This document shows positions 37,805 to 58,219 of a stretch of DNA of 64,000 nt, in pieces. The first letter of the stretch is position 1; each line of letters starts with the position of its first letter. The position numbers and the translations under genes were made by a program. The stretch spans positions 5,600,001 through 5,664,000 of the forward strand of contig OZ244960.1 in NCBI GenBank assembly GCA_965222605.1. The letters are read 5' to 3'. Source of the DNA: Candidatus Latescibacterota bacterium. Lineage in GTDB: Bacteria > Latescibacterota > UBA2968. The notes under the pieces were generated by a model that saw nothing but the letters and a program-made list of their open reading frames with translations, ran no database searches and had not been told where the DNA came from.

Positions 37805-40800
37805 ATGGCAGAGCATCAGGAAGAAAAACAAGTCCTAACAGCAGATCCCAAGCGTCAAGCAAATGACGCGCTAAGGGGATACGTCTATCAAATCTGGCAC
37901 AGTGTGCATGCTTGGATCAGCCTTGATGAAGATGAAATCCTCTATCTGGAAGGAGCGGAAGACTTTGACCAGGTATCAGATGACACTGCTACGGCAGTGC
38001 AAGTCAAAGACACGCAACACAAGATTACGCTCAGATCTCAGGAAGTGAATGACGCGATTAGTCACTATTGGGATTTGCAAGCCAATCATCCTGATCTGAG
38101 TGTGAAATTTCGTTTTCTCACCCGATCTAAGATTGGTGCGGAACGAGGTAATCCATTTGGAAAAGGACAGATGGGTCTTCATGTATGGAGCCATTGTTCG
38201 AGTGATGAAGCAGCTATCACAAAAATCTCCAAATTTTTACAAAATGAAGGGAAAATATCAAAGGAAGTAGATGATTTTCTGAAAAATTCGACACCTCAAG
38301 AAATTTATGAACGTCTCATTGAACCTATTTCTTGGGAGACAGATAGTAAAGAAGCCAGTTTTGTTGAGAAATCCATAAGTGATAAACTGATTCTTCATGG
38401 TCATCAATACGGAATCCCACCATCTGCTGCCAGCAAAGTTGTTGATCATCTTATCAAAGAAGCCTTGCTGGTCGCAACACAAAAGGAAAAACGCGAGCTT
38501 ACCCTAGTGCGTTTTCTCGAAATTTTTGAGGAGAAAACAACTCAAAGGGTTCCAATTCAGCATTTACAGGCACTACAAATGCAGACCACAATGGCGGATT
38601 CCTTTAGAGCATTATCCATGGGGGGTTCGTCTGATATTACTATTCAATCTCAGTCTCGCATACTAACGACTATCCCACCCCTTTATCCCGATGTTACTCC
38701 AAGAAAAGATTTGCTCACAAGCATCCAGGCTCAACTCCAATCAGAGGGTATAGCTGTAATCCAGGGAGGATCGGGAAGAGGGAAGACCACACTCGCAAAC
38801 TTGACCGCAAGTGCTCTAAGCGGTTCATGGTTTTGGTTGAATTTCCCTAATAGTGATTCATCACAGAATGTCCAACTTTTACAGCAACTTGCTATTGCAG
38901 TAAGTAATCAATCCTCACCGGTCAACATCGTCCTTGATGACCTGAACTTACAACCTCAAGAGTTGCGGCAGTATGAAGAAATTTTGGGTGTCATCGTTTA
39001 TAGGGTAAGGGAACGTGGTGCAAAATTGTTGATCACAAGCCAAAATAAGCTACCCAATAATCTCATCCGTCGCCTCGGTATACCACAGTCTGTATCCATC
39101 CATGTTCCTGACTTTACCATATCCGAAATTGAGCAATTTGCACAACAATTGGGATGCCCCCCTGATCGCGCAAATCCTTCGGCAAAATTGATTCAATTCC
39201 ATACCGGAGGGCATCCGAGACTGGTACACGCTCGACTCGATCAATTAAGAGAGACAGACTGGCAGCAATATAAAAACGAAAGTATCTTGCAAACACCTCC
39301 AGAAGTGATAGAAGAGCGTGAAGAAGCGCGACAATTGCTTATAGACTTGCCAGAAGATCAGCGAGAATTTCTCTATAGGCTTAGTTTGCTATCTACCGCA
39401 TTTAGGAAAGATTATGCACACAACATTGGCGAGATACCAGAATCCATACCCTATCCAGGTGATGTTTTTAGCCAACTGGTCGGTCCTTGGATAGATCCAG
39501 TAAATGAAACATACTACACAATCTCCCCTTTGTTGGATAACGCGGCCAAGCAGGTTTGGTCGGAAAGCAAGATAAATGACCTCCACACCCAGATTGCAAA
39601 TGCAGTCCTCAAAGCAACGGATCTAACCACAATAGAAGCGCGGGCTGTTCTCGTACATAGTATGCAAGGACAGAACCAAAAAGGTCTTACTGCTATTCTT
39701 CAGGCATTGCTTGCCACGCCAGAGAGCAAGTGGTACCAACTTAGCCAAGAATTCTCATGGTTGATACACGTCAAAATCGACCCCTCTAAAAAATTATTTA
39801 TTGGGGACGCCTTTATAAATCATCTATTTCGGTCATTGCAATATCGCATTGCGGTTGAGGTGGAACCTGAGTTTGCGCCGAAGATACTTGAAATTTGGGA
39901 TAAAGAAATCCAGCCATACGAGCCGCATAAGTCATATCTGCTGTGTCGCCTAACGCTGGCGACACAGGCATTGGTGTATTGTCAAGTGCCACTATCAGTA
40001 AAACAGATGGTAGGCTATCTCAAAGAAATTATTGATATAAAAGACTATGATAAAGAGGTACAAGAAATATATGGTAACTTTGAGGGACAATTAGAAGAAC
40101 CTGGAACTGATAAAGCCAATTTTTTGAGCACCTTATTTAGCTTTATCTTGGCGCGCCCTCCTATCTATGCTCCAGACCTCAGCGACCTTATTGATGCACT
40201 GGATGAGATTCAACCTAACCATAGGGCTTTATTATTAGCTAATTTCGAGAATGACGGCACTGATTCTCGGATTTTGGTTGATGGTATCTGGGTGGGGGAA
40301 TCAGGCCTTAAGCAGCCCAATTGGACAAGATGCCTTCAAGTATATGACAAACTAATTGAAAGAACCATCGATTGGGGCTATCCTCATATTGCTGCGACAG
40401 TTGCAAGACGTAAAGCCATCATCCATAATGAATACTTGCACGACCCGGATACTGCCTATAAAGTTCTTCAAGATATGGAAACAACAGTGGGGATATCATC
40501 AGTAATAGAAGAAGGACGGGCTGCAGTCTATTTTTATCATAACCATTACAAAGAAGCACTCAATATTTACGAGCGTATTCTCTCGGAATGGGACCCATCT
40601 TCAAAAAAGTTAGGCTTGTTACCTTCAAATTGGTGTCGTCAAGCTGCTATCTGTGCTGCTCATTTGGGTAATTGGGAAAAAGCGGCTACCTTCTTTGAAG
40701 ATGGGGCAAAAAGAGCTAAAGAGAATTATGGCACTGAACAATATATTGGTTTATATGCAGATGCGGGATTCGCGCAGTTTAAGGCAGGCAATGTCCGGGA

Positions 40801-41881
40801 TAGTCTGAATTTGTTGAGTGTGGCACTACAAGAATTTGATATGCTTCCTCAAGATGATACAGATGTTGGATATTTTACATTAAAAAAACTTTTAGGATAT
40901 TCAATAACCTGGTTGGCACAACAAAATAAAAAGAATAAAATCAAATCAGAAGAACCTCCACCAGGCTTCTGCAGTGATCCTGCCAGGTCTGACGAAATTA
41001 TGAACTACCCAAATTTTCCTATACAATATGCGTGGCTTCATTTAGCTCAAGTAGAGTATCAATTCAATTTAGGAATGACAATTTTTGAGCAGGCATTACA
41101 GGTTATAGACCAAAATGTATATCCAGTATTAAGATCGTCCCTTGTTTTCCTCAAAGCACAGCAGGACTTTAGAAACAAGACCTTTGATGAACTTCCACAA
41201 CGTATGTGTCAATTAGCGGATGCATATGTCTCAGCACAGAAGCATGAACAAAGTGGAAAAGGAATAGAAGAAAAGGGAGTTTATGTTGTATCTACCGCTG
41301 AGTTATCCAATTTCGCCTCTGTCGAGAACATCATTGATATGCTGGTAGCAGCCCTTCTTGTTCAACTGTCAACAAATAGAGATACGAATGAGATTTTGTC
41401 TATATGGCATGCGAACTCGTCAGAGTTACCTGTACAAAAAAATATGACTATTGCTCTTGATCTGATTGAATCAATGTTATTTGGAGAAGAGAAGAATGCT
41501 CTGGCAGTAATGAGAACAAAAGAAGCCAAAAAAGAAGATCGAATTATAGCATCATTAAAAATAATTCATAATACGAAAATAGATCCACAACATCTTTTTT
41601 CTGCTCACACACTTATTACGACTTCTCTCATTGATCAAAGCTGGGGCGAGTATATTGTGACAGATTTAGCAGAACTCCTTTCGAAACAATGGCTAAAAAA
41701 AATAGAATTTCAAGCAATCTTAAATATGCCTATGATTACAGTGCCTCAGATAGAGCAAGCCTGCAACAGTAGTGAGGCTGGAAAGAAAAAAATCGGTCAA
41801 ATTTTACTCGCGGCACATCAAGCTGTCTCAGTCCAATTATCTCCTGATATTTTACAGCAGTTTCGCAGTTGGGTAGAATGA
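37805..41881 (+). CDS. Avs/NLR-like defence protein: Cap4/DUF4297-type nuclease + STAND NTPase + TPR sensor
   Basis: ALRGYVYQ...EGAEDFD...AVQVK, Walker A GGSGRGKTT, Walker B IVLDD, GGHP, helical TPR-like C-terminus; AT-rich. Confidence 0.8.
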   Translation: MAEHQEEKQVLTADPKRQANDALRGYVYQIWHSVHAWISLDEDEILYLEGAEDFDQVSDDTATAVQVKDTQHKITLRSQEVNDAISHYWDLQANHPDLSVKFRFLTRSKIGAERGNPFGKGQMGLHVWSHCSSDEAAITKISKFLQNEGKISKEVDDFLKNSTPQEIYERLIEPISWETDSKEASFVEKSISDKLILHGHQYGIPPSAASKVVDHLIKEALLVATQKEKRELTLVRFLEIFEEKTTQRVPIQHLQALQMQTTMADSFRALSMGGSSDITIQSQSRILTTIPPLYPDVTPRKDLLTSIQAQLQSEGIAVIQGGSGRGKTTLANLTASALSGSWFWLNFPNSDSSQNVQLLQQLAIAVSNQSSPVNIVLDDLNLQPQELRQYEEILGVIVYRVRERGAKLLITSQNKLPNNLIRRLGIPQSVSIHVPDFTISEIEQFAQQLGCPPDRANPSAKLIQFHTGGHPRLVHARLDQLRETDWQQYKNESILQTPPEVIEEREEARQLLIDLPEDQREFLYRLSLLSTAFRKDYAHNIGEIPESIPYPGDVFSQLVGPWIDPVNETYYTISPLLDNAAKQVWSESKINDLHTQIANAVLKATDLTTIEARAVLVHSMQGQNQKGLTAILQALLATPESKWYQLSQEFSWLIHVKIDPSKKLFIGDAFINHLFRSLQYRIAVEVEPEFAPKILEIWDKEIQPYEPHKSYLLCRLTLATQALVYCQVPLSVKQMVGYLKEIIDIKDYDKEVQEIYGNFEGQLEEPGTDKANFLSTLFSFILARPPIYAPDLSDLIDALDEIQPNHRALLLANFENDGTDSRILVDGIWVGESGLKQPNWTRCLQVYDKLIERTIDWGYPHIAATVARRKAIIHNEYLHDPDTAYKVLQDMETTVGISSVIEEGRAAVYFYHNHYKEALNIYERILSEWDPSSKKLGLLPSNWCRQAAICAAHLGNWEKAATFFEDGAKRAKENYGTEQYIGLYADAGFAQFKAGNVRDSLNLLSVALQEFDMLPQDDTDVGYFTLKKLLGYSITWLAQQNKKNKIKSEEPPPGFCSDPARSDEIMNYPNFPIQYAWLHLAQVEYQFNLGMTIFEQALQVIDQNVYPVLRSSLVFLKAQQDFRNKTFDELPQRMCQLADAYVSAQKHEQSGKGIEEKGVYVVSTAELSNFASVENIIDMLVAALLVQLSTNRDTNEILSIWHANSSELPVQKNMTIALDLIESMLFGEEKNALAVMRTKEAKKEDRIIASLKIIHNTKIDPQHLFSAHTLITTSLIDQSWGEYIVTDLAELLSKQWLKKIEFQAILNMPMITVPQIEQACNSSEAGKKKIGQILLAAHQAVSVQLSPDILQQFRSWVE

Positions 41882-41900
41882 ATATCCTGTTATTAAATCG

Positions 41901-41990
41901 GCTGTCTGAATCAGATGATTTAGACTAACCCATCTCACGCCAGTTGAAGCGCTGGTAAAATTAGATGCGTGGAAGCAGGCGTTGGCATAG
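41901..41990 (+). repeat. mutS 3'-end direct repeat, copy 2 (displaced former mutS terminus with own TAG)
   Basis: Encodes HLTPVEALVKLDAWKQALA* versus mutS HLTPVEALVKLDAWKRALEE*. Confidence 0.9.
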
Positions 41991-42037
41991 GACTCTTAAC
42001 ATGGCTCTTGAAACGGTGTGAGAATGGAGGAAAAATT

Positions 42038-42940
42038 ATGGAAGAGATAGCTTTGCCAAAGTTGCGCGTGAGTAGAAAAGAAGCAAATAATAAAATAAAA
42101 GCGCAAATTGAGAAAGGGGAATTGCTCTGTAACCGGCAGATATGTTCAGAAGAAGAATTGGAGAATGTAGGTATAGCAGCCAACCATTGGTCAAGATACA
42201 ACAGAGATCTCTTAATAAAGCTATTTGATAACTTATCGATAGACGATGAATACAAAAATTTCCATTACTATAGATTGAGTCATCAAGATATAGCGAACCT
42301 GATGTTGGATGGGGTTCCCATACCAGATTTTCAAGATCAAGTAAGTGAATACCAAAGAGATATGACAGATAGCATCAATAGTCTAAAGGGAATCTGTTAC
42401 CGACTTGAATTATTCGATGAAGTATTAGACAATGTCCCTTACACCTTGGCCAATAAAGGGTTTTCAGACAATCCCACTCGCACCTTCGGTGACCATGTCT
42501 TCATCGTGCATGGACATGACGAGGCCGCCAAACATGCCATCGCTAGATTCGTGGAGAAGTTTAACTTAAAGGCTACCATACTTGATGAGCAAGCAAGTAA
42601 AGGCCAAACGGTTATTGATAAGTTTGAAGAAAATGCAGACAATGTGGGGTTTGCAATCGTCTTACTGACGCCTGACGATGTTGGCGCACCAAAAGATCAA
42701 ATAGATGAACCTAAACCTCGAGCACGTCAGAACGTTATATTAGAACTCGGCTATTTTTTGTGTGGATTAGGGCGTGAGCGTGTATGTGTTCTTTACAAAA
42801 AAGGAGTTGAACTACCTTCAGATATTCAGGGTATAGTCTATGTACCCATGAATAATCCCAATGAATGGCAACTGAAATTAGCTACAGAAATGAAGCAGGC
42901 AGGATTACCGATTGATCTGAACAAACTTATAGAGGCATAA
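42038..42940 (+). CDS. TIR-like nucleotide-binding domain protein (Cap12/Pycsar-type TIR)
   Basis: VFIVHGHD, FAIVLLTPDD, RARQNVILELG, ELPSD; SD GGAGG. Confidence 0.88.
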   Translation: MEEIALPKLRVSRKEANNKIKAQIEKGELLCNRQICSEEELENVGIAANHWSRYNRDLLIKLFDNLSIDDEYKNFHYYRLSHQDIANLMLDGVPIPDFQDQVSEYQRDMTDSINSLKGICYRLELFDEVLDNVPYTLANKGFSDNPTRTFGDHVFIVHGHDEAAKHAIARFVEKFNLKATILDEQASKGQTVIDKFEENADNVGFAIVLLTPDDVGAPKDQIDEPKPRARQNVILELGYFLCGLGRERVCVLYKKGVELPSDIQGIVYVPMNNPNEWQLKLATEMKQAGLPIDLNKLIEA

Positions 42941-44142: not shown

Positions 44143-45699
44143 TCACGCAGACATGATCTCAAAGGTCGTTATATTGCGGGTATCCTTGCTGAACTCTACG
44201 GCGATCAGGTGGATCGGCTGATCCAGACTCCGATATTTGTCCGCATAGCCTTTCTGTCTCAGTTGCGCCATCGCAGTCCCTTCCGGTGCCAATTCCACCA
44301 CCTTAAACTCGAACAGATACACATTACCGTTGAAACGAATTGCCATGTCCAGACGCCCCTGGCTGCTGCTGTCCTCTACAACGATGTCCAATCCCACCGA
44401 TGCGAAGTAGGAGTAGAAAACGCTGGCGTAGTAGCCTTCGTAGTTCGCTATGTCGTTGTTCGTGTGCCACTGGTAGGGAATGCTGGCGAAGAATGCTTTG
44501 AATAGACCCTCCAGACTCGCAAAATCATTGACCAGAAGCAGGTCATACAGACGGGCGCGGTGCTCCGCGCGCTGTGATGGGTCGCCAGTCAGATGATTCA
44601 ACAAGCTCCTATTCAGGCTCTGGCGCACTTCTCGATTCGGATAGGATAGCCGATAGTACATCTCTCCACCGCGCGGTTCGGTATGGTGGATGGTTAGATA
44701 CCCGGTCTGGAACAGCAGGGCTTCGGTGGCGATGTGGTCAACATCAAAAGCCGACAGCAAATCATCACTGCCCAGCATGTTGTCCAGAGCCAGCGCACCG
44801 ACCCCGCGCGATAGTAGCGTCTCGATCAGAAATGTCGGCGTACCTGTCTCGAACCAGTAGGCTTCGAAGCTGTGCCTTCTGAACAGCAAGAGGATGTCGA
44901 AGGGGTTATAGACCTTCTCCTGTCCCCGCCAGCTATAGCCGTTGTACCAGTGCCTTATCTCGTCCCTATCCAGACCCGGCAGTTCTGGCGCAAATACCGT
45001 GTCGAGGTCCTCCTCGGTGTAGCCGCAGATGGCGGAATATTGTGGGTCAATGGTGATGTCGGTGAGGTTGTTGAGGCCAGAGAAAAGATGCACCTTGGAG
45101 AACTTACTGACACCAGTGAGGAATGCGAACTTAATATGAGCATCGCTATCCTTGATGGTCGCGTATAGACCGCGCAGAAAGTCGCGGTTGGCGCACGCGG
45201 TCTCCGGTACTTCCAGAGCATCCAGAATCGGCTTATCGTATTCATCCACAAGCACGACAACACGCTGCTCGCCCTGCCGATGCAATACCCGGATCAGATC
45301 GCCAAAGCACTCCGGTGCAGTATCGTAACGCGGCGCAATCCCGGCTTCTTCTGCTATCGTGAGCAGTTGCGTCATCACATTCGTATGCAGATAGGACGCT
45401 TCTTTGAAATTGCCGCTACCAAAGCTCAAGCGCACAACGGGATAGCGAACCTGCCAGTCCCAGTGGTCGTGGATATGAAGCCCTTCGAACAGCGGTTCAT
45501 TGCCCTCAAACAGTTCCTTCAACGTGTCCAGAAACAGGCTTTTGCCAAAGCGACGTGGACGCGATAAAAAATAGTGCGAGCCCTCGTCCATCAGTCGCCG
45601 CATGTGGGCAGTTTTATCGACATAGTAGCAGTTTTCCTCCCGAATTTTTCGGAAGGTCTGAATGCCAATAGGCAACTTGCGTCTGTCTGATATGCCCAT
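44143..45699 (-). CDS. AAA-ATPase-like domain + PD-(D/E)XK nuclease protein
   Basis: LPIGIQTF, SRPRRFGKS, VDEYDKP, TGVSKF, GRLDM...FEFK. Confidence 0.92.
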   Translation of the reverse strand: MGISDRRKLPIGIQTFRKIREENCYYVDKTAHMRRLMDEGSHYFLSRPRRFGKSLFLDTLKELFEGNEPLFEGLHIHDHWDWQVRYPVVRLSFGSGNFKEASYLHTNVMTQLLTIAEEAGIAPRYDTAPECFGDLIRVLHRQGEQRVVVLVDEYDKPILDALEVPETACANRDFLRGLYATIKDSDAHIKFAFLTGVSKFSKVHLFSGLNNLTDITIDPQYSAICGYTEEDLDTVFAPELPGLDRDEIRHWYNGYSWRGQEKVYNPFDILLLFRRHSFEAYWFETGTPTFLIETLLSRGVGALALDNMLGSDDLLSAFDVDHIATEALLFQTGYLTIHHTEPRGGEMYYRLSYPNREVRQSLNRSLLNHLTGDPSQRAEHRARLYDLLLVNDFASLEGLFKAFFASIPYQWHTNNDIANYEGYYASVFYSYFASVGLDIVVEDSSSQGRLDMAIRFNGNVYLFEFKVVELAPEGTAMAQLRQKGYADKYRSLDQPIHLIAVEFSKDTRNITTFEIMSA

Positions 45700-48233: not shown

Positions 48234-48917
48234 ATGAGCGTACAAAAAGAAATTTACGCCCTCAAACGCGAACTCGCCGCGCGTTATCAACTCGGCGAAG
48301 AACACCACAATATTTGCGGGCGCAAAATAGGTGTGACCTGTGTTGAAGATGCCGAAGCACTCTTTGACAAACTGGGGATGGCCGATCCCGATAGCGTTGA
48401 AGTGCGAGATGAACGCATGCCGTATTGGGCAACGCTTTGGGATTCTGCTCTTATTTTATCCGATGTTCTGCTCTCGGATAACTTGATCGCGCCGGGCGAG
48501 TCCGTACTTGAACTCGGCTGTGGATTGGGCCTTGTGTCATCTATTGCCTGTCTCAAACGCGCGCGTGTCACTGCCACCGATTATCAGCCCAATGCACTCA
48601 AGTTCGCGCGACTCAACGGATTGCAAATTGCCGGCGTCGCGCCCAGGACAATGCTCATCGACTGGCGTTCCCCGCCTCAAGATCTATGCTATACCACCTT
48701 GTTGGGCGCAGACCTCGTGTACGAACTGCGCTTTTTCGATCCCCTCATCGCCACATTCGACGCCCTTCTCGTACCGGGAGGGCGCGTTTTATTTTCTGAA
48801 CCCAATCGCGTCGTAGGCAGATCTTTCTTTGATCGTCTCCACGATGCGGGCTGGGCGTTTTCCACTATAACCGAGCGGGAAGGCGCGACAGTGTATGAGA
48901 TCGTGAGATGTGATTAA
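48234..48917 (+). CDS. class I SAM methyltransferase (Methyltransf_16-like)
   Basis: PYWATLW, VLELGCGLG, ATDY, GADLVYE. Confidence 0.85.
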   Translation: MSVQKEIYALKRELAARYQLGEEHHNICGRKIGVTCVEDAEALFDKLGMADPDSVEVRDERMPYWATLWDSALILSDVLLSDNLIAPGESVLELGCGLGLVSSIACLKRARVTATDYQPNALKFARLNGLQIAGVAPRTMLIDWRSPPQDLCYTTLLGADLVYELRFFDPLIATFDALLVPGGRVLFSEPNRVVGRSFFDRLHDAGWAFSTITEREGATVYEIVRCD

Positions 48918-49804
48918 AACACATCCAGCGCTGCTGCTTCGATTTCTTTCCGCAATGCCTTCTCTTCTTCCTCATCGAGAGGACGTGTTGGTTTGATGGG
49001 GTTGCCGCACTCAATTCCCTGCCAGCGCAATACGGCGCGCACGCTGCCGTGTCCACCGTATTTTTGACAAATCCTAATCAGCTCATTTACGTTTGCTTGC
49101 AGTGCGCGGGCCGTATCTAAATCGCACTTGTTCATCGCTTCGTAGATGCCGACAAAATGCGAGGGCATCACATTGTAAAACGTGCCAATACCTCCCTGAG
49201 CACCTATTGCAATGCCCGATAGGGCCACTTCGTCATGTCCGTTAAAAATATGCGGTTTATGCGACCCATTGAGGAGACGTTCCATTAAGAACAAGTTGAA
49301 ATTTGTGAACTTAATACCCACCACGCCTTTAAGTGCGAGCATCTGGCTGATTTGTTCAAACGAATACTCCTGATGCGTGACCACGGGAATATAATACACG
49401 AAGACCGGCAAATTTGCCGCCGAACTCAACGCGCTGTAATACGCCAATATATCGTCAAACCGATACCCCTGGACATAAGGCGGCAAACTCGAAATGCCAT
49501 CGGCCCCTGCATCTGCGGCGTGTTTGGCGAGTTCAACCGCATCGCGCTCAGAGGGCGCGCCAACGTGTACCACCACCCGTCCACGCCCTTTTGATGCTTT
49601 GACGGCGACCTCTGTGGCCAATTTGCGTTCGGCCATTGTCATCAAATAGCCTTCGCCCGTGTTGCCGGCTACATATACGCCATGTGACCCCTGTTCGTAA
49701 ATACGCGCCATGAGTTTTTCGTAAGCTGAGACGCTGAATGCACCCGCCCCATCTCTGGGGCTGACCAGTGCAGGATACATGCCCTTGAAACCGTCGAGTA
49801 TCAC
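48914..49804 (-). CDS. DHDPS/N-acetylneuraminate lyase family aldolase
   Basis: GNTGE, YYIP, Schiff-base GIKFT, GHDE, GGIGTFYN. Confidence 0.88.
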   Translation of the reverse strand: MILDGFKGMYPALVSPRDGAGAFSVSAYEKLMARIYEQGSHGVYVAGNTGEGYLMTMAERKLATEVAVKASKGRGRVVVHVGAPSERDAVELAKHAADAGADGISSLPPYVQGYRFDDILAYYSALSSAANLPVFVYYIPVVTHQEYSFEQISQMLALKGVVGIKFTNFNLFLMERLLNGSHKPHIFNGHDEVALSGIAIGAQGGIGTFYNVMPSHFVGIYEAMNKCDLDTARALQANVNELIRICQKYGGHGSVRAVLRWQGIECGNPIKPTRPLDEEEEKALRKEIEAAALDVF

Positions 49805-50808
49805 AGGGCGCCTCCTGTTTTTTCGTAAAGGGCGCGGGCTAATGATTCGATTTCTGTGCGTTCAACCAATGTCTCTACGAGATGTTGCGGCAAACCCGAT
49901 GTCCCGCGATACAAACCGCTCAATGTGCCGGCAACGGCTGCAAATGTATCTACATCTCCACCCGTGTGTAGCGCGCGTTCGACCGTGGGGATAAATTCTC
50001 CTTCTGCGCGCAAAAATGCCTCTAAAGCCACGACAACTGTGGCCTGGGCTTCGCTCGGGATGGCATTTTCTCGCACCGCTTCGGGCATTTGTACCATGGC
50101 CGCCCACGCATCTTCTTCGTTCATTGTCAGCAATGTCCGCACCTGTGCGATCAACTCGCCTGTGGATTCGCAAATCGGTCTGGCCGACCACTCGGCCACG
50201 TCCAGGACTTCATTCCCATCCAGGGGGCGATGTGTTACCAGATGCCCCACCACATGGGCCATTGCGACCGCAGGTGCAACTGCGCGAGGATCCTGGTGTG
50301 TCACATGGCTCGCTGTAATTGCATCTTCCCGGATATTTTCACCGGTTGCCCAGTTCCACAAGCCCACTGGCGCGATTTTCATGACCGCCCCGTTGGAGGG
50401 GTGGTCTTTTGATGCGGCTTCGGACCACGCCAAACCACGATCAAGGCGTTCCAGAGTTTCTCGAAAAGCCCTGCCATACATACGCAGGATTCCCTCACGC
50501 CACAGCGCCAAAAACCGATTGCTCAGGTCTTCGGGATCGATCTTTTCACACGCTATAATTGACTCAATCAGGATGAGGGTCTGCTGTGTATCGTCTGTAT
50601 ATTCTCCTGCTGGCCGGGTCAACACGCCTTCCCGATTGATCCGACCTCGATAGTGGTCTGTCAATCCTTCTACCGCTAAAATTCGCTCCCGGGGCCATCC
50701 CTCACAAAAACAGCCCAGAGCATCGCCTATTGCGCCGCCCAATAGCGCGCCTACAAACAAATCCTCAACCTCGACATCTTCCAGCTCGTCTTCCCAATAA
50801 TCAGCCAT
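49801..50808 (-). CDS. ADP-ribosylglycohydrolase family protein
   Basis: GAIGDALG, YTDDT, NGAVM, GGDVDT. Confidence 0.9.
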   Translation of the reverse strand: MADYWEDELEDVEVEDLFVGALLGGAIGDALGCFCEGWPRERILAVEGLTDHYRGRINREGVLTRPAGEYTDDTQQTLILIESIIACEKIDPEDLSNRFLALWREGILRMYGRAFRETLERLDRGLAWSEAASKDHPSNGAVMKIAPVGLWNWATGENIREDAITASHVTHQDPRAVAPAVAMAHVVGHLVTHRPLDGNEVLDVAEWSARPICESTGELIAQVRTLLTMNEEDAWAAMVQMPEAVRENAIPSEAQATVVVALEAFLRAEGEFIPTVERALHTGGDVDTFAAVAGTLSGLYRGTSGLPQHLVETLVERTEIESLARALYEKTGGAL

Positions 50809-50857
50809 AACTCAAATCCTCAAGTTTAATCGGGGTAAAAATATCGGACAAGAGCCT

Positions 50858-51856
50858 CTATTGCGCATCTACGATATTGCGAAATGCCCGAATGTGATCG
50901 GGCGTTGTGCCGCAACATCCGCCAATCAAAAATCCGCCGGCGTCCAACAAGTCTTTGACGTGTTGCGCCATGTCTTCTGGCCCTTGTGAATACGACGCCT
51001 GTTTGGTGACTTTGTCCAGGGTGGGCAAGCCCGCATTGGGATAGGCCATCAAACGCTTGTTTTCAATGTCGCGATCCACAAGTGCTTTTTGCATCTGCTT
51101 TGTGCCCTCAATTGCATAGGGCATGCCCGTATGATCTGTATTGCGCGTTTCGGCACCGCAGTTCAGGCCCAAAAGTTGCACATTATCGAGCAGATCATCG
51201 CCATCTGAAAATTCACCACTTGCCAAAATATCCAGCACATCGCCGGGCGAAAAGCCCCAGTCCGTTCGATAAATCAATTCACCCGTTTTGCGATCCTTTG
51301 TGAATTTATACGTCATATTCACGGCGATGGGCAAGCCCGTCTGCCGCGCAATATCAACGGCGATTGCCGCTTCTTTGGCGGAAAACTGCGTCTCTATGAC
51401 AAAAAAATCGACACCGCTTTTGACCATGGTAGAGATCACGCGCTCGTGGGCTGATCGCACATCTATATTGGGAATGCCAAAATCCGTATCGCCGGCATCG
51501 GCTTCAATAGCGCCGGGGGATGGGCCGATGGAACCGCCCACATAAACATCCTTCCCACTTTCTTCAATGGCTTGCCGCGCGTGTTGGACGGCTAATTCTG
51601 TCAATTTTTCGGCATCATCTACATCGGCATCGGCCATCTCGAGATGTAATGGAGATACCACAAATGTGTTCGTGCCAATGGCATTTGCACCCGCATCGAT
51701 ATACGCGCGATGCACTGCCACCACCTCGTTGAGATGCGATAGATTGGCGATGGAACTGTTTGCCAGATTCACCCCATGTTCAAATAATTGAGATCCAAAC
51801 CCGCCGTCGTATACCATAGGTTGGTCATCTGTGAGGCGTTCTGCAAAAGATTTCAT
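50858..51856 (-). CDS. stand-alone homocysteine S-methyltransferase domain protein
   Basis: DGGFGS, GSIGP, Zn ligands LNCG and GGCCGTTPDHI, YPNAGLP. Confidence 0.9.
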   Translation of the reverse strand: MKSFAERLTDDQPMVYDGGFGSQLFEHGVNLANSSIANLSHLNEVVAVHRAYIDAGANAIGTNTFVVSPLHLEMADADVDDAEKLTELAVQHARQAIEESGKDVYVGGSIGPSPGAIEADAGDTDFGIPNIDVRSAHERVISTMVKSGVDFFVIETQFSAKEAAIAVDIARQTGLPIAVNMTYKFTKDRKTGELIYRTDWGFSPGDVLDILASGEFSDGDDLLDNVQLLGLNCGAETRNTDHTGMPYAIEGTKQMQKALVDRDIENKRLMAYPNAGLPTLDKVTKQASYSQGPEDMAQHVKDLLDAGGFLIGGCCGTTPDHIRAFRNIVDAQ

Positions 51857-53781
51857 ACCGTCATCCTCTTAAACTGACACCCTTCGACAAATGCGTCAAA
51901 AAAGTCTGGCTTTGTCTCCAGTTCCACATGCTCAATTCGCTTCACCAGACGTTCTAACTCATCGCGTCGTTTTCGCGAGAGCAATACTTCTCTTGCGCCC
52001 AATATCGCGGCATTTCCCACCTTTTCAATACGCTCTTGCGGCACGGGTGCGAGAAAACCGATATCAATCGCATTTTGCACATTTACGTAATTGGCGAAAC
52101 CACCGGATAGATAGAGTCGATGGATCTGGTCGGGGGCAATGCCAAATTCGCGCATGACAATCAATTGTCCACAATAATTTGCGGCCTTGGCTTGAGCCAG
52201 ATTGCTCGCATCTTCGCGCGATAGCGCAATGCCGTGTTCGGGCACCACCATCATTTCAAATTGCTTGCGGTTGGCAAATACGCCCTTTTCTGTCATCATA
52301 TCATGCCGCCGAAGCTCGGCCAACAAATCGATCAGACCCGAGCCGCACAACCCCTGGGGCGCGCCGCCGCCAATTACGCGGTAATTGAACTGACCATTTT
52401 CCCACACAACTGATTCAATCGCCCCATCTTGCCCGGGCATGCCACAGGCGATGCCGCCGCCTTCAAATGCCGGTCCCGCCGGACAAGATGCTGCGATCAA
52501 CCGATCTCGATTGCCCACCACGACCTCGGTATTGGTGCCCACATCGACAAGCATAAATACTTCGTCCTGGTCACCCATTTCTACGGCCAGCATATCCGCT
52601 GCGACATCGCCGCCCACATGGCTTGCAATAAGGGGCATGCCATATACCCGCGCTTTGGGATTTGCTCGAATGCCCAACCGCCTGCTGCTTTCATAAAGGG
52701 CGGTTGTTTTTCGATCTCCGGCCAGATATTCGTGTTCTATTTGAGATTTATAGGGCTTTTGCCCAATACTCTGCACATTGAGTCTGAAAAACATATCTCG
52801 CATGGTGGCATTGCCAGCTATGACAATTTCGTAAATTTCTTGCCGCACAAAATTCAATTTTTCACAGAGTAGCAGGATCTCGTGGTTGATCGCATTCACC
52901 AGTGCCTTCCACAGCTCATTTGGATATTCGCCGTCATAAGAAATGCGATACATTATATCGCTGCCGCCAAAGCGCTGGGGATTTTCATAAGATGCAATCG
53001 CAATACTCTCACCAGATTCCAGATCTACGAGATCCATCACAATTGTGGTGGTGCCCACATCAATTGCCAGCCCATAGATGTGTCCCCGAAACCGATCGAT
53101 GTCTTCCCCGTCGTAGAGCACCCGATCTCCATCGCGCGTGACCACGGGATTGAGATCAATTTTTTTTTCCTGGCTCAAGGCCAAAATTTGAGGCGCGCGG
53201 CGCAGGGGCACAAATTCAACTTCCGCGTCCAAATCCACGACTTCGGCCTGACAGGCCAACCGGTAATTGTCTTTTAAGAAGGCTTCAGCCTCGGTTTTGG
53301 GGCACAGGGCTTCTTCGCCTTTTGCAATTTCTACCACGCATTCATGGCATATCCCCGACCGGAAACACGATGTTGGAACCCGAACAGATAGATCGTCGGC
53401 ATAATCAAAGATCGTCTTTCGCCCTTCGAGTTGCTGCACCTGGCCGATGTGTGTAATTGTGCCCGTCCCCTTTTTTCTGCGACGCTTTTTTTGTGTTTTG
53501 AGCGTGGTCTTCATCTCTTGATAGGCATTTGGCTCTGTTTCCCAGGCCGTGCGATAGTCGAGGTTGTCATTGCTGGCACATTGAAAAAGCGCCCGACCGG
53601 GCGCTGGTTTTCGCTGAAATTTACATCCAAATTTGGCGGTGCATTCGTTGTCTTTATTTTTGTAGGGACAGCGCATTTGCGCCTGTTCGTCGGCATGCTG
53701 GACAATATCTGAAAAAATTTCAGACATGCGATCCAGCCGCTTTTGATAGGCTTCTCGATCTATTTTTTCTTTCTCACGCAT
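51853..53781 (-). CDS. ASKHA/RACo-type corrinoid reductive activator with 2Fe-2S domain and extra Cys-rich N-terminus
   Basis: CFRSGICHEC...RLAC, DVGTTT, NPQ..GSD, GPAFEG, GLCGSG, VGNAA. Confidence 0.9.
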   Translation of the reverse strand: MREKEKIDREAYQKRLDRMSEIFSDIVQHADEQAQMRCPYKNKDNECTAKFGCKFQRKPAPGRALFQCASNDNLDYRTAWETEPNAYQEMKTTLKTQKKRRRKKGTGTITHIGQVQQLEGRKTIFDYADDLSVRVPTSCFRSGICHECVVEIAKGEEALCPKTEAEAFLKDNYRLACQAEVVDLDAEVEFVPLRRAPQILALSQEKKIDLNPVVTRDGDRVLYDGEDIDRFRGHIYGLAIDVGTTTIVMDLVDLESGESIAIASYENPQRFGGSDIMYRISYDGEYPNELWKALVNAINHEILLLCEKLNFVRQEIYEIVIAGNATMRDMFFRLNVQSIGQKPYKSQIEHEYLAGDRKTTALYESSRRLGIRANPKARVYGMPLIASHVGGDVAADMLAVEMGDQDEVFMLVDVGTNTEVVVGNRDRLIAASCPAGPAFEGGGIACGMPGQDGAIESVVWENGQFNYRVIGGGAPQGLCGSGLIDLLAELRRHDMMTEKGVFANRKQFEMMVVPEHGIALSREDASNLAQAKAANYCGQLIVMREFGIAPDQIHRLYLSGGFANYVNVQNAIDIGFLAPVPQERIEKVGNAAILGAREVLLSRKRRDELERLVKRIEHVELETKPDFFDAFVEGCQFKRMTV

Positions 53782-54535
53782 TCTCCGCCTCCCACTCCTG
53801 CAACAATTGTACAGCCAATTCCACGCAGTCCAGGGCGTTTTCACCGTATCCATCTGCACCCATATCGTCTGCAAATTCCTGTGTCACAGGGGCGCCGCCC
53901 ACCATAATTTTTACATCGTCCCGCAAATCTTCGTCAATAAATGCCTCAATTGTCTTACCCATATTCGGCATTGTCGTGGTTAAAAGTGCCGACATGCCCA
54001 GCAAATTGGCTTCGTGTTCTTCGACTGCTTCGATAAATTCGTCTTCGGATGTATCCACGCCGAGGTCGTGTACGACAAACCCGGCACCGCGCAACATCAT
54101 GATACACAAATTTTTGCCAATATCGTGCAAATCGCCTTTCACCGTGCCCATAATGACCGTACCTGCCGGCTTGACACCCGAAGCCGATAAAATGGGTTCA
54201 ATATGCGCCATCCCCGCTTTCATTGCCCGAGCGCACGCGAGGACTTCGGGTACAAAAATAAAATTCTCTCGAAATTTAATCCCCACAATGCCCATGCCGG
54301 CGATCAAGCCATCGTCCATAATTTCCAATGCTTCCACGCCTGCATTCAGGGCATCACGCGTCAATTGATCGACATCGTGATGCGCGCCATCAATCAATGA
54401 GGCGGCAATCGTCTGCATCTCAGAACTCGCCTGTGAGAACAAATCGATATTGCGTTGGATCTCATTGGGACGTTCCAGAAATTCTACTATTTCCTCTTTG
54501 ATAAACTCATTTTGAATATCGGATAATTCAGCCAT
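53774..54535 (-). CDS. corrinoid (B12-binding) protein
   Basis: FVPEVL, GDLHDIGKN (DxHxxG), SALLTTT, GGAPV. Confidence 0.95.
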   Translation of the reverse strand: MAELSDIQNEFIKEEIVEFLERPNEIQRNIDLFSQASSEMQTIAASLIDGAHHDVDQLTRDALNAGVEALEIMDDGLIAGMGIVGIKFRENFIFVPEVLACARAMKAGMAHIEPILSASGVKPAGTVIMGTVKGDLHDIGKNLCIMMLRGAGFVVHDLGVDTSEDEFIEAVEEHEANLLGMSALLTTTMPNMGKTIEAFIDEDLRDDVKIMVGGAPVTQEFADDMGADGYGENALDCVELAVQLLQEWEAENA

Positions 54536-55580
54536 GAACTCTCTTTTCCTCCGCATGCCAGTCCACGATTGCGTTTGGGATTTCTTTCAAATTTTCGATT
54601 GATGTCTGCAACGGAATTGCGCATTCAGGCCCGATCAGATTCACACCGGCGTCCAGGTTTTTATATACTTCTTCTCTTACGGTTTCCGGCTCTTTTGAAA
54701 ATAGCGTTTCCGGATTGTTGATGTTGCCGACCAGCGCAATCCGCTCCTTTATGATGTCAATTGACTCATTGGGATCGTTTTTGGAATCGTAGTGGAATGC
54801 TGCCATGCCCGTTTGCGCGATGTATTCCATCCGATCAACTGTGCGCCCGCATATATGCAAAATCAGTGGAATGGGGATGCGGTCGGCAAACTCGATGTGC
54901 AATTCGCGCAAATACCGGTCGTAATAATCACCGCTGACCAGATCACCCGTTGCGTGATCGGGCAAGGTCAAGGCGTCGGCACCTGCTTCAATTTGCGCCA
55001 CACCAAATTCGACGGTTACTTCTTTCAATTTGTCCAGAATCTGCCGCGTGTGATCCGGGTCGTCTAATGACAGCAGTAAGAAATCCTCCACGCCAAAACA
55101 GTGATAGGCCAGAGACCAGGGACCCATTGTTTTGCCGATAATCGCCACTTCGTCGCCGTATTCTTTTCGCAATAGGCCAATTGCGTCCCGCACGCATTTT
55201 GTATCGGGATGGGTCAATAAGTTTGATGGGATTTTAATATCATCTGCTGTGCTCCAGATCGGTTCTTTCATCTTTACTGTGGGCCAGTTGTCTTTCTGCT
55301 CCCACTGGATTTTGCATCCCAATGCCGACGATTCCTGGATAATCGTAAATACCGGCATAATCGTGTCAAATCCCAGTTCGGTATAACCCGTTGCGGCCAG
55401 CCGCGCCATGAGTTCTGGCTCGCGATTGGCGTGCGGAAATGGCGCATCTACCAGGTCCATTAATTCCACGGTTGCAACCGAGGTCGGGTTGCAGGTCGGT
55501 GTGCGATCTACAGGTGCCCGATTGAGTGCCGCCAATACGCGGTCGCGCGGTTTCATTGGTTTTATTGTCTGGTCGTGCAT
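54528..55580 (-). CDS. MtaA/CmuA-family methyltransferase (UroD fold)
   Basis: PRDRVLAAL, GPWSLA, LHICG, GPECAIP Zn ligands. Confidence 0.9.
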   Translation of the reverse strand: MHDQTIKPMKPRDRVLAALNRAPVDRTPTCNPTSVATVELMDLVDAPFPHANREPELMARLAATGYTELGFDTIMPVFTIIQESSALGCKIQWEQKDNWPTVKMKEPIWSTADDIKIPSNLLTHPDTKCVRDAIGLLRKEYGDEVAIIGKTMGPWSLAYHCFGVEDFLLLSLDDPDHTRQILDKLKEVTVEFGVAQIEAGADALTLPDHATGDLVSGDYYDRYLRELHIEFADRIPIPLILHICGRTVDRMEYIAQTGMAAFHYDSKNDPNESIDIIKERIALVGNINNPETLFSKEPETVREEVYKNLDAGVNLIGPECAIPLQTSIENLKEIPNAIVDWHAEEKRVHG

Positions 55581-55623
55581 ATTGGGACTCCAAAAAAGGT
55601 GAGACGTGAGAGGCGGAAATCGT

Positions 55624-56253
55624 TTAATTTTGCGCGCTTGGAGCAGCGAGCACGCCTCGACTGGCAGCCTGTTCCAATTCTCTTAAAACGGATCGCACAT
55701 TGGGGGCGCGTACGATAAGAACGCCTATCAGGGCATCGTGTGCAATACCGCAATCAAAGCATACCTGATCTTTTTTTAATTGTTCCAATTCGCCCAGTTT
55801 TGCAAGCCCTCCGGCCACCAGTCGAATGCGCCGGTCTGCGCCTTTTTCATCGCTGTCAGCCGTGATTGTGTACACGCCATCAGATTGTGCCGTTGCCGAA
55901 ATGTGCAATCCCGATTTTTTGTCCAAAATGGTTAATGGACGCATAGATACATCGTCATCCATGCCGAGTTTGCACGATTCTAAAAATAGCCGCTTCACAG
56001 ATAGCAGGTGTGTTGATCCACACGGAAAACGCAGCAATCCCTCGCCTGTGTCTTCCATTCCTCCTAAAACTCGCATCGCATGATTTACGGATTCAATCCG
56101 CGCTTGCGCGCCATCTATCTGGCTATATGTGTGAACGCGAAAAGTCGTACCCTGCGCGTTTTCTTGCCGATATAGCCCAATTGTGATGTCGTGAAAATGG
56201 GTATCCATCGGCACCAATTCTATTCGCCGACCAAGATCTAAAGTCTGTCCCAT
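55624..56253 (-). CDS. hypothetical protein with two FxCGxxH motifs
   Basis: FPCGSTH and FDCGIAH; SD AAGGA; precedes MtaA gene. Confidence 0.75.
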   Translation of the reverse strand: MGQTLDLGRRIELVPMDTHFHDITIGLYRQENAQGTTFRVHTYSQIDGAQARIESVNHAMRVLGGMEDTGEGLLRFPCGSTHLLSVKRLFLESCKLGMDDDVSMRPLTILDKKSGLHISATAQSDGVYTITADSDEKGADRRIRLVAGGLAKLGELEQLKKDQVCFDCGIAHDALIGVLIVRAPNVRSVLRELEQAASRGVLAAPSAQN

Positions 56254-56292
56254 GAGAATCCTTTCAGAGGTGAGACGGGGTAGGGGGGCGTC

Positions 56293-57156
56293 TTACCTAT
56301 CAAGCACATATCGGCACACTGCTTTGGCAAAGCCTTCGTTTTCAATATGATCAGTTTGCAAAATATCTTCCCCGGCCACTGCTTGACGGGTTGCTGCGTC
56401 TGCATTGTGCATCAACACACCGGTTCTGGCTGCGCGCAACATGGGCAGATCATTATTGCCGTCGCCCACAGCCATCACTTCATCAAGGCTGCTGCCAATA
56501 TGGTTGGCTATCGCTGTGAGTGCTGCGCCTTTGTTCACATTTGGGTGCATGATTTCGATGCGACCTGCCACAGCCCAGGCCATGTAAATTTGATCGCCGA
56601 ATATATTTTTTAATTCATCAACTGTCTCATCGGCATGCCCGGGTTGGGGCAAGAGCATTATTTTTGGGGGCGCGGCCAGTTCTTTTGCGCGTATTCGTTG
56701 CGCCAGATCGGAATCGACTTCGTAAACCATATTGGTCATTGCGGCAACCTCGCGGCTCATTTTTGTCGTGCGGTCGGTGATATAAACTTCGCAGGCCCCC
56801 TCGCTATTTATGTCACAGCGGCAATATACAAAATTCATGAGCCGGTCATCGGCATATTGGATCAGTGATAAGAATATATCATCGGGCAAACGCTGTTCGT
56901 GCATGAGTTGGCGTGTGCCATTCGTTTTGGGTGCGAAAACCATCGCGCCATTATAACATCCGGCGTAGAGCGCGTCGGCCACGCTGGGGTTGCTCAGAAA
57001 CGGGATTTGATTGCGCTCAAAGTTGCGCCCACTCATCGACGCTACAGCTACGCCACGGTCCAACAATTCGCAAATCGCCGCCATCGAAGCATCCGATGGG
57101 GTGTTGTTGTGATTTAATATGGTTCCATCCAGGTCAAAGGCTACGAGTTTGACCAC
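56293..57156 (-). CDS. Cof-type HAD-IIB hydrolase
   Basis: FDLDGT, SGR, NKG, GDGNNDLPM; GTG start after AGGAG. Confidence 0.9.
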   Translation of the reverse strand: MVKLVAFDLDGTILNHNNTPSDASMAAICELLDRGVAVASMSGRNFERNQIPFLSNPSVADALYAGCYNGAMVFAPKTNGTRQLMHEQRLPDDIFLSLIQYADDRLMNFVYCRCDINSEGACEVYITDRTTKMSREVAAMTNMVYEVDSDLAQRIRAKELAAPPKIMLLPQPGHADETVDELKNIFGDQIYMAWAVAGRIEIMHPNVNKGAALTAIANHIGSSLDEVMAVGDGNNDLPMLRAARTGVLMHNADAATRQAVAGEDILQTDHIENEGFAKAVCRYVLDR

Positions 57157-57181
57157 ACGGGTTCTCCTCATTGGGGTGAAT

Positions 57182-58219
57182 TTAATCAATCAAAGGCAAC
57201 CGAACGGTTCCGCCTCGCTCTGTTGATCGGTGAACCGCTTCGGTAAATTCCATATATTTCATGCCTTCGTAAAAGCTGGTATCGCCCTGAGGCCCACCTT
57301 TGATGGCATTGATAAAGTCGGCTTCCACTGTCCATTCGGCGGCTTCATCTTCGGGGATGGGAATTTCTTGCAGGCGCCGATCGCCTGTTTTTGCACCGAG
57401 GATTTGCGTTCCCATGTCGTAGATCAATGTGCCTTCGTTGCCATAAGCTTCAACGACGGAGCTTCCGCCAAATTGGGCGACACCCGAAAACAGAAATGCC
57501 GCACGCGCGCCATTTTCCATTTTGCCTATGACATGCGCCATATCAGGTGTTTCAACTGGTCCATCGCCAGACCCATCGGGTAGAGATCGCTCTCTGGTAA
57601 AAATCTCAGTTTCAGCCGTTATGGTTGACATATAGCCAAATACGCGCGCGACGCGCTCGACGGTAATGCCCATTCCCAGGATATTCAGGCCCGAATATCG
57701 TCTGACCTGTCGCCAGTGTAACGGTTCGTCAACATCCCAATATTGCCCGCCCAGATCGCGGACATAAACGTGGAAAATATCGCCCAAATATCCTTCATCT
57801 ATGAGCCGCCGCAAAAAACGTCCGCCCTTCCACGGGGGTGCCGGACAAATTTGGGTCACGAGATTTGATTCTCGACTTCTGGCATACATCAGTCGGGCTT
57901 CTCGCAAGTTCATCGCCATGCGCGCCTGTACAAAGGTGTGTTTGCCCGCGTCTAAGGATGCGAGGACAAATTCACAGTGTTTGTAAGGCCATGTGCCGAT
58001 CATTACCGCGTCGATATCGTCCCGGTCCAACAATGCCTGTGAGTCTGTCATGGCCTCGGCTGATAGGCCCTGTTCGGCTATTACCTTTTCACCGCTTTCT
58101 ATACTGCGGTTGCATATTGCCACGACTTCGGCATCGTCAATTTTTGCCAATCCCGGAAAATGCCTACTCCGAAAAATACCGCCTGCACCAATAATACCAA
58201 TGCGAATTTTATCTGCCAT
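57182..58219 (-). CDS. Gfo/Idh/MocA family oxidoreductase
   Basis: IGIIGAG, IDAVMIGTWPYKH, AGKH. Confidence 0.9.
   Translation of the reverse strand: MADKIRIGIIGAGGIFRSRHFPGLAKIDDAEVVAICNRSIESGEKVIAEQGLSAEAMTDSQALLDRDDIDAVMIGTWPYKHCEFVLASLDAGKHTFVQARMAMNLREARLMYARSRESNLVTQICPAPPWKGGRFLRRLIDEGYLGDIFHVYVRDLGGQYWDVDEPLHWRQVRRYSGLNILGMGITVERVARVFGYMSTITAETEIFTRERSLPDGSGDGPVETPDMAHVIGKMENGARAAFLFSGVAQFGGSSVVEAYGNEGTLIYDMGTQILGAKTGDRRLQEIPIPEDEAAEWTVEADFINAIKGGPQGDTSFYEGMKYMEFTEAVHRSTERGGTVRLPLID

Follow-up and report, generated by a model that had tools for sequence, protein, structure and literature searches.

Among known systems, the split methionine synthase hub of roseobacters (MtgBCDE/RamA) comes closest to the locus described here. 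In Ruegeria pomeroyi the hub comprises MtgB, MtgC, MtgD and MtgE together with MetF2, a RamA-like activase and DUF1638, and in Phaeobacter inhibens MetH occurs in three parts (PMC12478193; PMC5764234). MtsA and MtpA use the URO-D fold to demethylate thioethers onto Co(I), as described partly in 10.1101/548461 and partly in general background. Type 1 mlp clusters, defined by at least Mlp2 and Mlp3 and found in obligate anaerobes, have been proposed to act in methyl-S or methyl-Se metabolism (Kountz and Balskus, PMC10418091). Here we analyze a window of 64,000 nucleotides (nt), positions 5,600,001 to 5,664,000 of contig OZ244960.1 (assembly GCA_965222605.1), from a Candidatus Latescibacterota bacterium, an uncultured marine sponge-associated organism, in which five minus-strand genes for corrinoid methyl transfer are packed at 50858-56253. 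We see about an even chance that these five genes encode a corrinoid relay lacking a folate branch, which would take a methyl group from some small methylated molecule, load it on a corrinoid protein and hand it on to homocysteine.

The five genes and the proposed relay

A check of open reading frames (ORFs) and domains in the window gave, in the direction of transcription, unk209 (55624..56253), a 209-amino-acid (aa) ORF without a profile match whose family has not been described; a 350-aa MtaA/CmuA-family zinc methyltransferase of the URO-D fold (54528..55580; PF01208, TIGR01463), called MtaA-like below; a 253-aa corrinoid (B12) carrier protein starting from the ATG at 54535 (53774..54535; PF02310, PF02607); a 642-aa RACo/RamA-type ATP-dependent reductive activase starting from the ATG at 53781 (51853..53781; Fer2, Raco_middle, RACo_C_ter); and a 332-aa stand-alone homocysteine S-methyltransferase of the MetH module 1 or MtgE type (50858..51856; PF02574). 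A gap of 43 nt separates unk209 from the methyltransferase, and the following genes overlap by 8, 8 and 4 nt, with good ribosome-binding sites at their starts (GGAGGA in front of the corrinoid protein's ATG). An earlier note on this DNA, made from the letters alone, had proposed this gene content with these overlaps, and the ORFs, Pfam and NCBIfam matches and start sites bear it out. Its further statement, that the cluster holds no pterin-binding, MetH-reactivation or MttB/MtaB-type module, also stands: a domain scan of 17 ORFs, from 45.8 to 63.7 kb of the window, found no Pterin_bind, Met_synt_B12, MTTB or MtaB domain.

The MtaA-like enzyme matches PF01208 (E 6e-64, 216.6 bits) and passes both TIGR01463 for MtaA/CmuA (244.5 bits against a cut-off of 235.4) and PRK06252 (261.4 bits against 244), and it falls under the MtaA and MtbA equivalog cut-offs (NF040654, 236.2 against 400; NF041608, 201.4 against 600). 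Among solved structures, MtaA of M. mazei (4ay7, E 3e-49) comes nearest, and the H-x-C motif and the distal cysteine align with it. Conservation was scored on 22 of 55 eligible sequences, 75-97% identical to the window protein and with a mean column identity of 87%, in all of which H242, C244 and C320 are invariant. We read H242-x-C244...C320 as a predicted His-Cys-Cys zinc site of the S/Se-methyltransferase type. Zinc ligands in the S/Se-methyltransferases of the URO-D superfamily are His-Cys-Cys and those of the O-demethylases are carboxylates (PMC10418091), while the haloalkane enzyme CdmB has no zinc and a hydrophobic cavity (PMC13222342). The mark of the O-demethylases MtvB, OdmB and VdmB, which is carboxylates or no zinc site, is absent from the MtaA-like enzyme by the criterion of PMC10418091, which was applied without a direct comparison of the sequences. 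The predicted His-Cys-Cys site makes a thioether or selenoether the probable donor. The earlier note had offered a methyl sulfide, a halomethane or an O-methyl sugar as the donor; the invariant His-Cys-Cys triad favors the S-methyl (or Se-methyl) option and speaks against the O-methyl sugar (PMC10418091).

The three remaining proteins also retain the residues of their families. The corrinoid protein carries a B12-binding domain (PF02310) with its B12-binding_2 cap (PF02607), and its DxHxxG motif reads DLHDIG at residues 135-140, with H137 in 66/66 sequences and SxL...GG also present; it lies under every NCBIfam cut-off (NF047996, for example, at 201.2 against 370). The activase matches PF14574 (236.9 bits), PF17651 (140.6 bits) and PF00111 (31.1 bits) and lies under the AcsV and RamA model cut-offs. 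Its 2Fe-2S cysteines C139, C145, C148 and C177 are conserved in 100% of 52 sequences, and an extra four-cysteine motif at the N-terminus, before the 2Fe-2S domain (C38, C47, C53 and C68; 98% conserved, 52 sequences), may form a second metal site. The homocysteine methyltransferase (PF02574, E 1e-49) has three cysteines only, C233, C314 and C315, which are 98-100% conserved in 41 sequences and are predicted to form a Cys3 zinc site. Identities of 29% for the corrinoid protein and 25% for the homocysteine methyltransferase to the matching modules of the genome's own MetH mark the two as old paralogues and not the products of a recent split.

In the proposed relay, the activase would spend ATP, and draw an electron from its 2Fe-2S domain, to convert the inactive Co(II) corrinoid protein to Co(I), and the MtaA-like enzyme together with unk209 would move the donor's methyl group onto Co(I), giving CH3-Co(III). 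The likeliest donors for this step would be thioethers and thiols that bear a methyl group, for example methanethiol, dimethylsulfide (DMS) or methylmercaptopropionate (MMPA), or else a methyl selenide. The PF02574 enzyme would then activate homocysteine at its Cys3 zinc site, yielding methionine and Co(I). We infer which way the methyl group flows, what donates it and that homocysteine accepts it. Methionine is a poor methyl donor and thiols are normally methylated by enzymes dependent on S-adenosylmethionine (SAM), so that flow toward homocysteine is favored.

A constant partner of the methyltransferase

No Pfam or NCBIfam model matches unk209 at E<=0.01, and neither a fold nor a function has so far been described for its family. 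A large protein collection contains 763 homologues at E<=1e-3, and the family has 272 representative clusters; nearly all members are ~210 aa long and none has a Pfam domain. Across 30 sequences C78, H82, C94, C168 and H172 do not vary, and neither does the C-terminal tail. The two halves of the protein are homologous (alignment score 54, compared with 24.7+/-4.4 for shuffles, none of 500 of which reaches it), and each half closes with an F-x-C-G-x-x-H motif; judged from its sequence, unk209 is an internal tandem duplication, and its conserved cysteines and histidines are a possible metal site. The AlphaFold2 model has a pLDDT (predicted local distance difference test score) of 86.8. The last ten residues are conserved, yet disordered in this model, which suggests a docking tail. 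A Foldseek search of the PDB returned nothing at E<=1e-3, and a protein Atlas search gave no usable match. The best VIA-align result was the KipI-like domain of urea carboxylase (Z 7.3 over 88 residues), and the HIT-like, ACT-like and BMC-like rows, at Z 4-6, fall inside the background stated for the tool.

Synteny around unk209 was compared at the best 80 of 343 places where relatives are encoded, in a collection of one genome per species for 185,579 species; flanks of 8 kb were fetched on each side, some of them reaching contig ends, and tblastn matches with less than 50% query coverage were dropped. An MtaA-like gene lies directly after unk209 in 80/80 of these loci. In the reverse direction, a survey of 168 genomes of the phylum, our own included, found that the same genomes carry both genes (MtaA-like 124/168, unk209 125/168). 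The tallies of the two genes by family are equal except in the window's own family, and the rows shown differ only at G067, a genome that is 82% complete. At about a dozen Poribacteria loci the pair occurs with neither the corrinoid protein nor the activase nearby, which ties unk209 to the methyltransferase and not to cofactor repair. These genomic patterns make unk209 a constant partner of the methyltransferase, with which it may physically associate; the earlier note had given it no role, and an incidental presence no longer seems tenable. As a family, unk209 is a well-defined target for biochemistry.

A search for longer homologues turned up no fusion of unk209 to another protein, which is weak evidence. 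One candidate, P0203 (345 aa), joins unk209 residues 12-146 to the start of a URO-D domain and was taken as a gene-call or frameshift artefact. The long frames in G164, G169 and G171 were likewise rejected as fusions, since the methyltransferase starts there as a separate ORF, and base composition was blamed for them.

Distribution of the module and rival readings

By taxon label, the best 80 loci comprise 32 Latescibacterota, 32 Poribacteria, 3 Gemmatimonadota, 2 Verrucomicrobiota, 1 Acidobacteriota and 10 unclassified. When their ORFs were clustered, 65 of the loci proved to have the corrinoid protein, 62 the activase and 40 the homocysteine methyltransferase; in 3 of 5 genomes checked, this last gene lay 1.8-2.9 kb past the fetched flank, and in the other two it lay 1.2 Mb away or was present only as a fragment. 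The flanks that were fetched contain an MtgD-like gene in 14/80 loci and a MetF/MetV-like gene in 15/80. A fuller form is seen at one Poribacteria locus, which starts with a divergent GntR gene, followed by unk209 and the MtaA-like gene; after an HNH insertion come the corrinoid protein, the activase, an unknown 227-aa protein and PhyH, next a MetF/MetV fusion with an MtgD-like pterin methyltransferase behind it, and last a small PF13769 protein, Ldh_2, the homocysteine methyltransferase and an enolase-superfamily gene. We regard the window operon as a reduced form of this wider module, which carries a folate branch in sister families. A tree of the MtaA-like proteins (78 rows, 10 of them without a group, with rows of fewer than 320 aligned residues left out) largely tracks the taxon labels. 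A single branch sets the Poribacteria apart from all other rows, the Latescibacterota label requires four or more changes on this tree, and labels of metagenome-assembled genomes (MAGs) may be unreliable.

Some loci of relatives contain further genes. The PF13769 ('Virulence factor') protein, of ~93 aa, directly follows the homocysteine methyltransferase or the MtgD-like gene in 23/80 loci (L026, L027, L037-L041, L046, L064-L086 and L098:10150-10431) and is absent from the window's genome. An HNH endonuclease gene lies between the methyltransferase and the corrinoid protein at L034:9751-10533, and a DNA N6/N4 methylase lies between unk209 and the methyltransferase at L022:8518-9876; both insertions inside relatives' modules are mobile-looking. 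Searches among plasmids, at the DNA and at the protein level, came back empty.

The phylum survey separates the module from the folate branch. In the four families f1 to f4, of which f1 is the window's own and the others are sister families, and from whose tallies our own genome is excluded, unk209 occurs in 29/30, 22/22, 3/3 and 68/76 genomes, respectively, and it is absent outside them except for two weak matches in f9. The MtgD-like folate methyltransferase occurs in 0/30, 20/22, 3/3 and 57/76 genomes of the same families, and the MetH activation domain in 28/30, 6/22, 2/3 and 25/76. When our own genome is added to f1, the counts are 30/31 for unk209, 29/31 for the MtaA-like gene, 31/31 for the homocysteine methyltransferase and 29/31 for MetH, with no MtgD-like subunit in any of the 31. 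An orthologue of the homocysteine methyltransferase lies at a constant distance from the MtaA-like gene in 31/31 f1 genomes. In one genus of 31 genomes, MetH occurs in 0, MtgD in 30 and unk209 in 31.

The window's genome is a single, closed 6.34-Mb contig, for which the tools give 98.7% completeness and 5.4% contamination. It contains a full-length canonical MetH (1973 bits against an equivalog cut-off of 1497) and a MetF, indicating that the module serves as an accessory route beside the methionine synthase of the cell. The earlier note had described a split methionine synthase; the parts are there, and the role in the cell falls to MetH and MetF. A pterin-binding subunit encoded elsewhere, which the note had named as the finding that would overturn its reading, was looked for: PF00809 matches in the genome are confined to MetH and dihydropteroate synthase, so that no stand-alone pterin-binding methyltransferase was seen, and there is no stand-alone PF02007 (MtrH) gene and no match to MttB (PF06253) or DUF1638 (PF07796). 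When a relative's MtgD-like protein was used as the query, only the MetH module matched, at 31% identity. There is one RACo_C_ter gene, that of the operon activase; two proteins have the B12 cap plus B12 domain, MetH and the operon's corrinoid protein; and two genes belong to URO-D, the operon methyltransferase and a 422-bit match that we read as hemE. With this gene content, the operon's two methyltransferases would be the only enzymes able to touch its corrinoid protein. The genome also encodes a haem-copper oxidase (COX1) and a short MetE-like 'core' homologue (358 aa, G000:C1:4996793-4997869), which is below all NCBIfam cut-offs (PRK04326, 134.8 against 406).

Two further gene pairs in this genome were noted in passing. 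The short MetE-like gene adjoins a gene resembling a polysaccharide chain-length determinant. A third PF02574-like gene (372 aa, G000:C1:672814-675121) lies directly upstream of an N-methyl-L-tryptophan/sarcosine-oxidase-like gene (280 bits against a cut-off of 257), and the two may be a pair linked to betaine or an N-methyl amino acid.

Pairwise ratios of nonsynonymous to synonymous substitution (dN/dS) within the lineage are 0.039-0.192 for the five genes, based on up to 7 pairwise comparisons with seven partner loci, two of the unk209 comparisons being saturated. These values indicate purifying selection and argue that the module is not a decaying remnant. In a lineage that lacks the folate branch and has a canonical MetH, the MtaA-like pair has thus stayed intact along with its carrier, the activase and the homocysteine enzyme. 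The simplest function for what has been kept is to move methyl groups between homocysteine and whatever the MtaA-like enzyme acts on, in one direction or the other. A family without a detectable folate branch is in this respect a natural experiment, which isolates the donor-to-homocysteine route as the selected function.

A broader proposal is more tentative, and as one joint claim we hold it to be doubtful: the MtaA-like enzyme and unk209 would constitute a new two-subunit methylthiol/methylselenide:corrinoid enzyme and, with the rest of the module, a folate-independent B12 route to methionine, fed directly by methylated sulfur compounds such as methanethiol, DMS or MMPA. The route would operate in sponge symbionts that live aerobically and in further uncultured bacteria of the sea, hundreds of species by their genomes. 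If this were true, the marine organosulfur cycle would be linked directly to methionine, as the methyl group of abundant marine sulfur metabolites would enter methionine and SAM while bypassing folate. Methanethiol, DMS or MMPA would have an added fate in animal-associated and open-ocean bacteria, and sponge symbionts would gain a B12-demanding trait.

Metatranscriptome libraries from three studies yielded assembled contigs that match the operon, as it occurs in relatives, with 90-99% identity. In a run labelled as sponge metagenome, short contigs with 1-6 differences fall on unk209, the methyltransferase and the corrinoid protein, and in two further runs single contigs cover 52715-56095, 48900-52922 and 55463-58214. 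The parts of the operon left uncovered in single RNA runs are no sign of silence, and the contigs weakly suggest that relatives express the operon.

Several considerations weigh against a relay that runs from a sulfur compound to homocysteine. Assembled RNA contigs cannot prove transcription, or a single transcript. The genome counts are not independent, because of kinship, many of the MAGs are incomplete, and the whole distribution may reflect one or a few evolutionary events. What the cell gains is unclear, since MetH and MetF already serve methionine synthesis. Thioether half-reactions are near equilibrium in the methanogen literature, so that sequence alone leaves the direction unfixed, and the closest methanogen relatives, MtaA and MtbA, are acceptor-side and not donor-side enzymes. 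Finally, by Pfam and NCBIfam, the genes surrounding the operon are sugar-related (sulfatase, GH5-like, BNR/sialidase-like, GFO/IDH/MocA, HAD-IIB and NanA-like), a pointer away from sulfur compounds.

Reverse flow, which we consider unlikely, would make the MtaA-like enzyme an acceptor-side enzyme that methylates a thiol, sulfide or selenide, for detoxification or to form a methylthio product. Its closest characterized relatives are methylcobamide:coenzyme M methyltransferases, the ClMlp2 assay ran in the methylating direction (PMC10418091), and the sister families and Poribacteria hold an MtgD-like methyltransferase and a MetF/MetV fusion able to load the corrinoid. No such folate-side loader exists in the 31 genomes of the window's family, however, where the methyl group would have to be taken from methionine, a poor donor and the sole source, by the PF02574 enzyme running backwards, and where the module is nevertheless still under purifying selection. 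The absence of MtgD-like subunits throughout this family also bears on the idea that the operon is part of an ordinary split MetH, with the folate module supplied in trans by MetH itself or by an unrecognised family and the MtaA-like pair as a side branch. The roseobacter hub does function from dispersed genes (PMC5764234, PMC12478193), and in some Poribacteria the MtaA-like pair is far from the remaining parts, but the closed genome has no stand-alone PF00809 or PF02007 gene and the only module its MtgD-like search recovered is covalently built into MetH, which makes this explanation highly improbable.

The sugar-related surroundings would fit a demethylase that works without oxygen on an O-methylated sugar, or on a compound like sialic acid, set free from glycans of the host or of algae, with homocysteine as a sink for the methyl group; the GFO/IDH/MocA and HAD-IIB genes are both present in 27/80 related loci. 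We consider this unlikely too, because the predicted zinc site is His-Cys-Cys and not of the carboxylate type (PMC10418091), because Co(I) attacks alkyl methyl ethers only poorly, and because the neighbours change completely across lineages: Poribacteria have a GntR regulator, epimerases and PhyH in this place, and other lineages have PIG-L and GNAT genes. A dehalogenase for CH3Cl, CH3Br or CH3I that feeds methionine, in analogy to CmuA, would be consistent with the match to the MtaA/CmuA model TIGR01463, with the reported closeness of MtgC-type corrinoid proteins to CmuA (PMC12478193), and with the ready reaction of methyl halides with Co(I) (PMC13222342). We regard it as very unlikely, as the operon has neither the fused architecture of CmuA nor the pterin partner CmuB, and its invariant thiolate-type ligands contrast with the zinc-free, hydrophobic cavity of CdmB (PMC13222342). 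Transfer from a small methylated compound, most likely one of sulfur or selenium, to homocysteine remains the reading that we prefer, at the even chance given above.

Genomic surroundings and comparison with known systems

The operon is flanked on the same strand by closely spaced genes. Upstream, a GFO/IDH/MocA oxidoreductase (57182-58219, minus strand) and a HAD-IIB Cof-type phosphatase (56293-57189, minus strand), both identified by Pfam and NCBIfam like the downstream pair, overlap each other by 8 nt and stop 39 nt upstream of unk209; they are possibly co-transcribed with the operon, and a functional link is not established. Downstream, an ADP-ribosylglycohydrolase-family gene (49801-50808, minus strand) begins 49 nt past the homocysteine methyltransferase and is overlapped by 4 nt by a DHDPS (dihydrodipicolinate synthase)/N-acetylneuraminate-lyase-like, or NanA-like, gene (48914-49804, minus strand). 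The transcription unit therefore probably extends past the homocysteine methyltransferase, at which the earlier note had let it end. This downstream pair is kept solely in close relatives (ADP-ribosylglycohydrolase in 16/80 loci and DHDPS/NanA-like in 13/80, all among L009-L025). A promoter scan found 17 promoter-like sites, compared with 14.1+/-3.7 in shuffles, and a scan of the region for terminators showed no convincing intergenic one.

Elsewhere in the window, the plus-strand interval 37805-42940 contains a 1358-aa ORF with no Pfam match at E<=1e-5, followed directly by a gene for a 323-aa protein with a CAP12/Pycsar-effector TIR domain (PF10137, E 4e-40). An AAA-ATPase/PD-(D/E)XK protein is encoded downstream of the TIR gene (44143-45699, minus strand), and the three genes may be a defence island. 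At 193-993 (plus strand) lies a gene for a 266-aa protein with four LDL-receptor class B (YWTD) repeats (E 2e-51), a domain type that is commoner in animals.

Among described systems, the module resembles CmuAB and CdmBCA (PMC13222342) in pairing a donor-side enzyme of the URO-D superfamily with a corrinoid carrier. It differs from these chloromethane systems in that CmuA is fused to its corrinoid domain, whereas the genes are separate here, in that CdmB is zinc-free, and in that CmuB and CdmA hand the methyl group to folate, for which this genome has no stand-alone pterin methyltransferase. Type 1 mlp clusters are defined by at least two paralogues, while a single MtaA-like gene is found here, accompanied by a PF02574 enzyme and unk209. 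The methanogen enzymes MtaA, MtbA, MtsA and MtpA share with the MtaA-like enzyme the URO-D fold, the H-x-C...C site and a match at the subfamily level. Unlike them, it is below the equivalog cut-offs, is always paired with unk209, occurs in an aerobic bacterium and has homocysteine as its proposed acceptor. The full-text literature that we searched, with subscription journals and supplements lying outside it, holds no description of an MtaA-like enzyme with MtgC/MtgE-type parts, or of the 209-aa family.

The roseobacter hub differs from this genome on the donor side and in its folate branch. Four of its parts are missing here, namely the pterin module MtgD, MtgB of the MttB family, MetF2 and DUF1638, and a canonical MetH is present as well; the donor side consists of the MtaA-like enzyme and unk209, and the word 'MtaA' occurs 0 times in the available text of PMC12478193. 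In its core, however, the module is built like the hub, with a separate corrinoid protein, a PF02574 enzyme and a ferredoxin-type RACo/RamA activase that replaces the reactivation domain of MetH. The earlier note had seen a surprise in anaerobe-type parts in an aerobe, which it no longer is, given the RamA-like activases and separate corrinoid proteins of aerobic roseobacters (PMC5764234; PMC12478193). As in the roseobacter hub, several methyltransferases serve one carrier in bacteria that respire aerobically.

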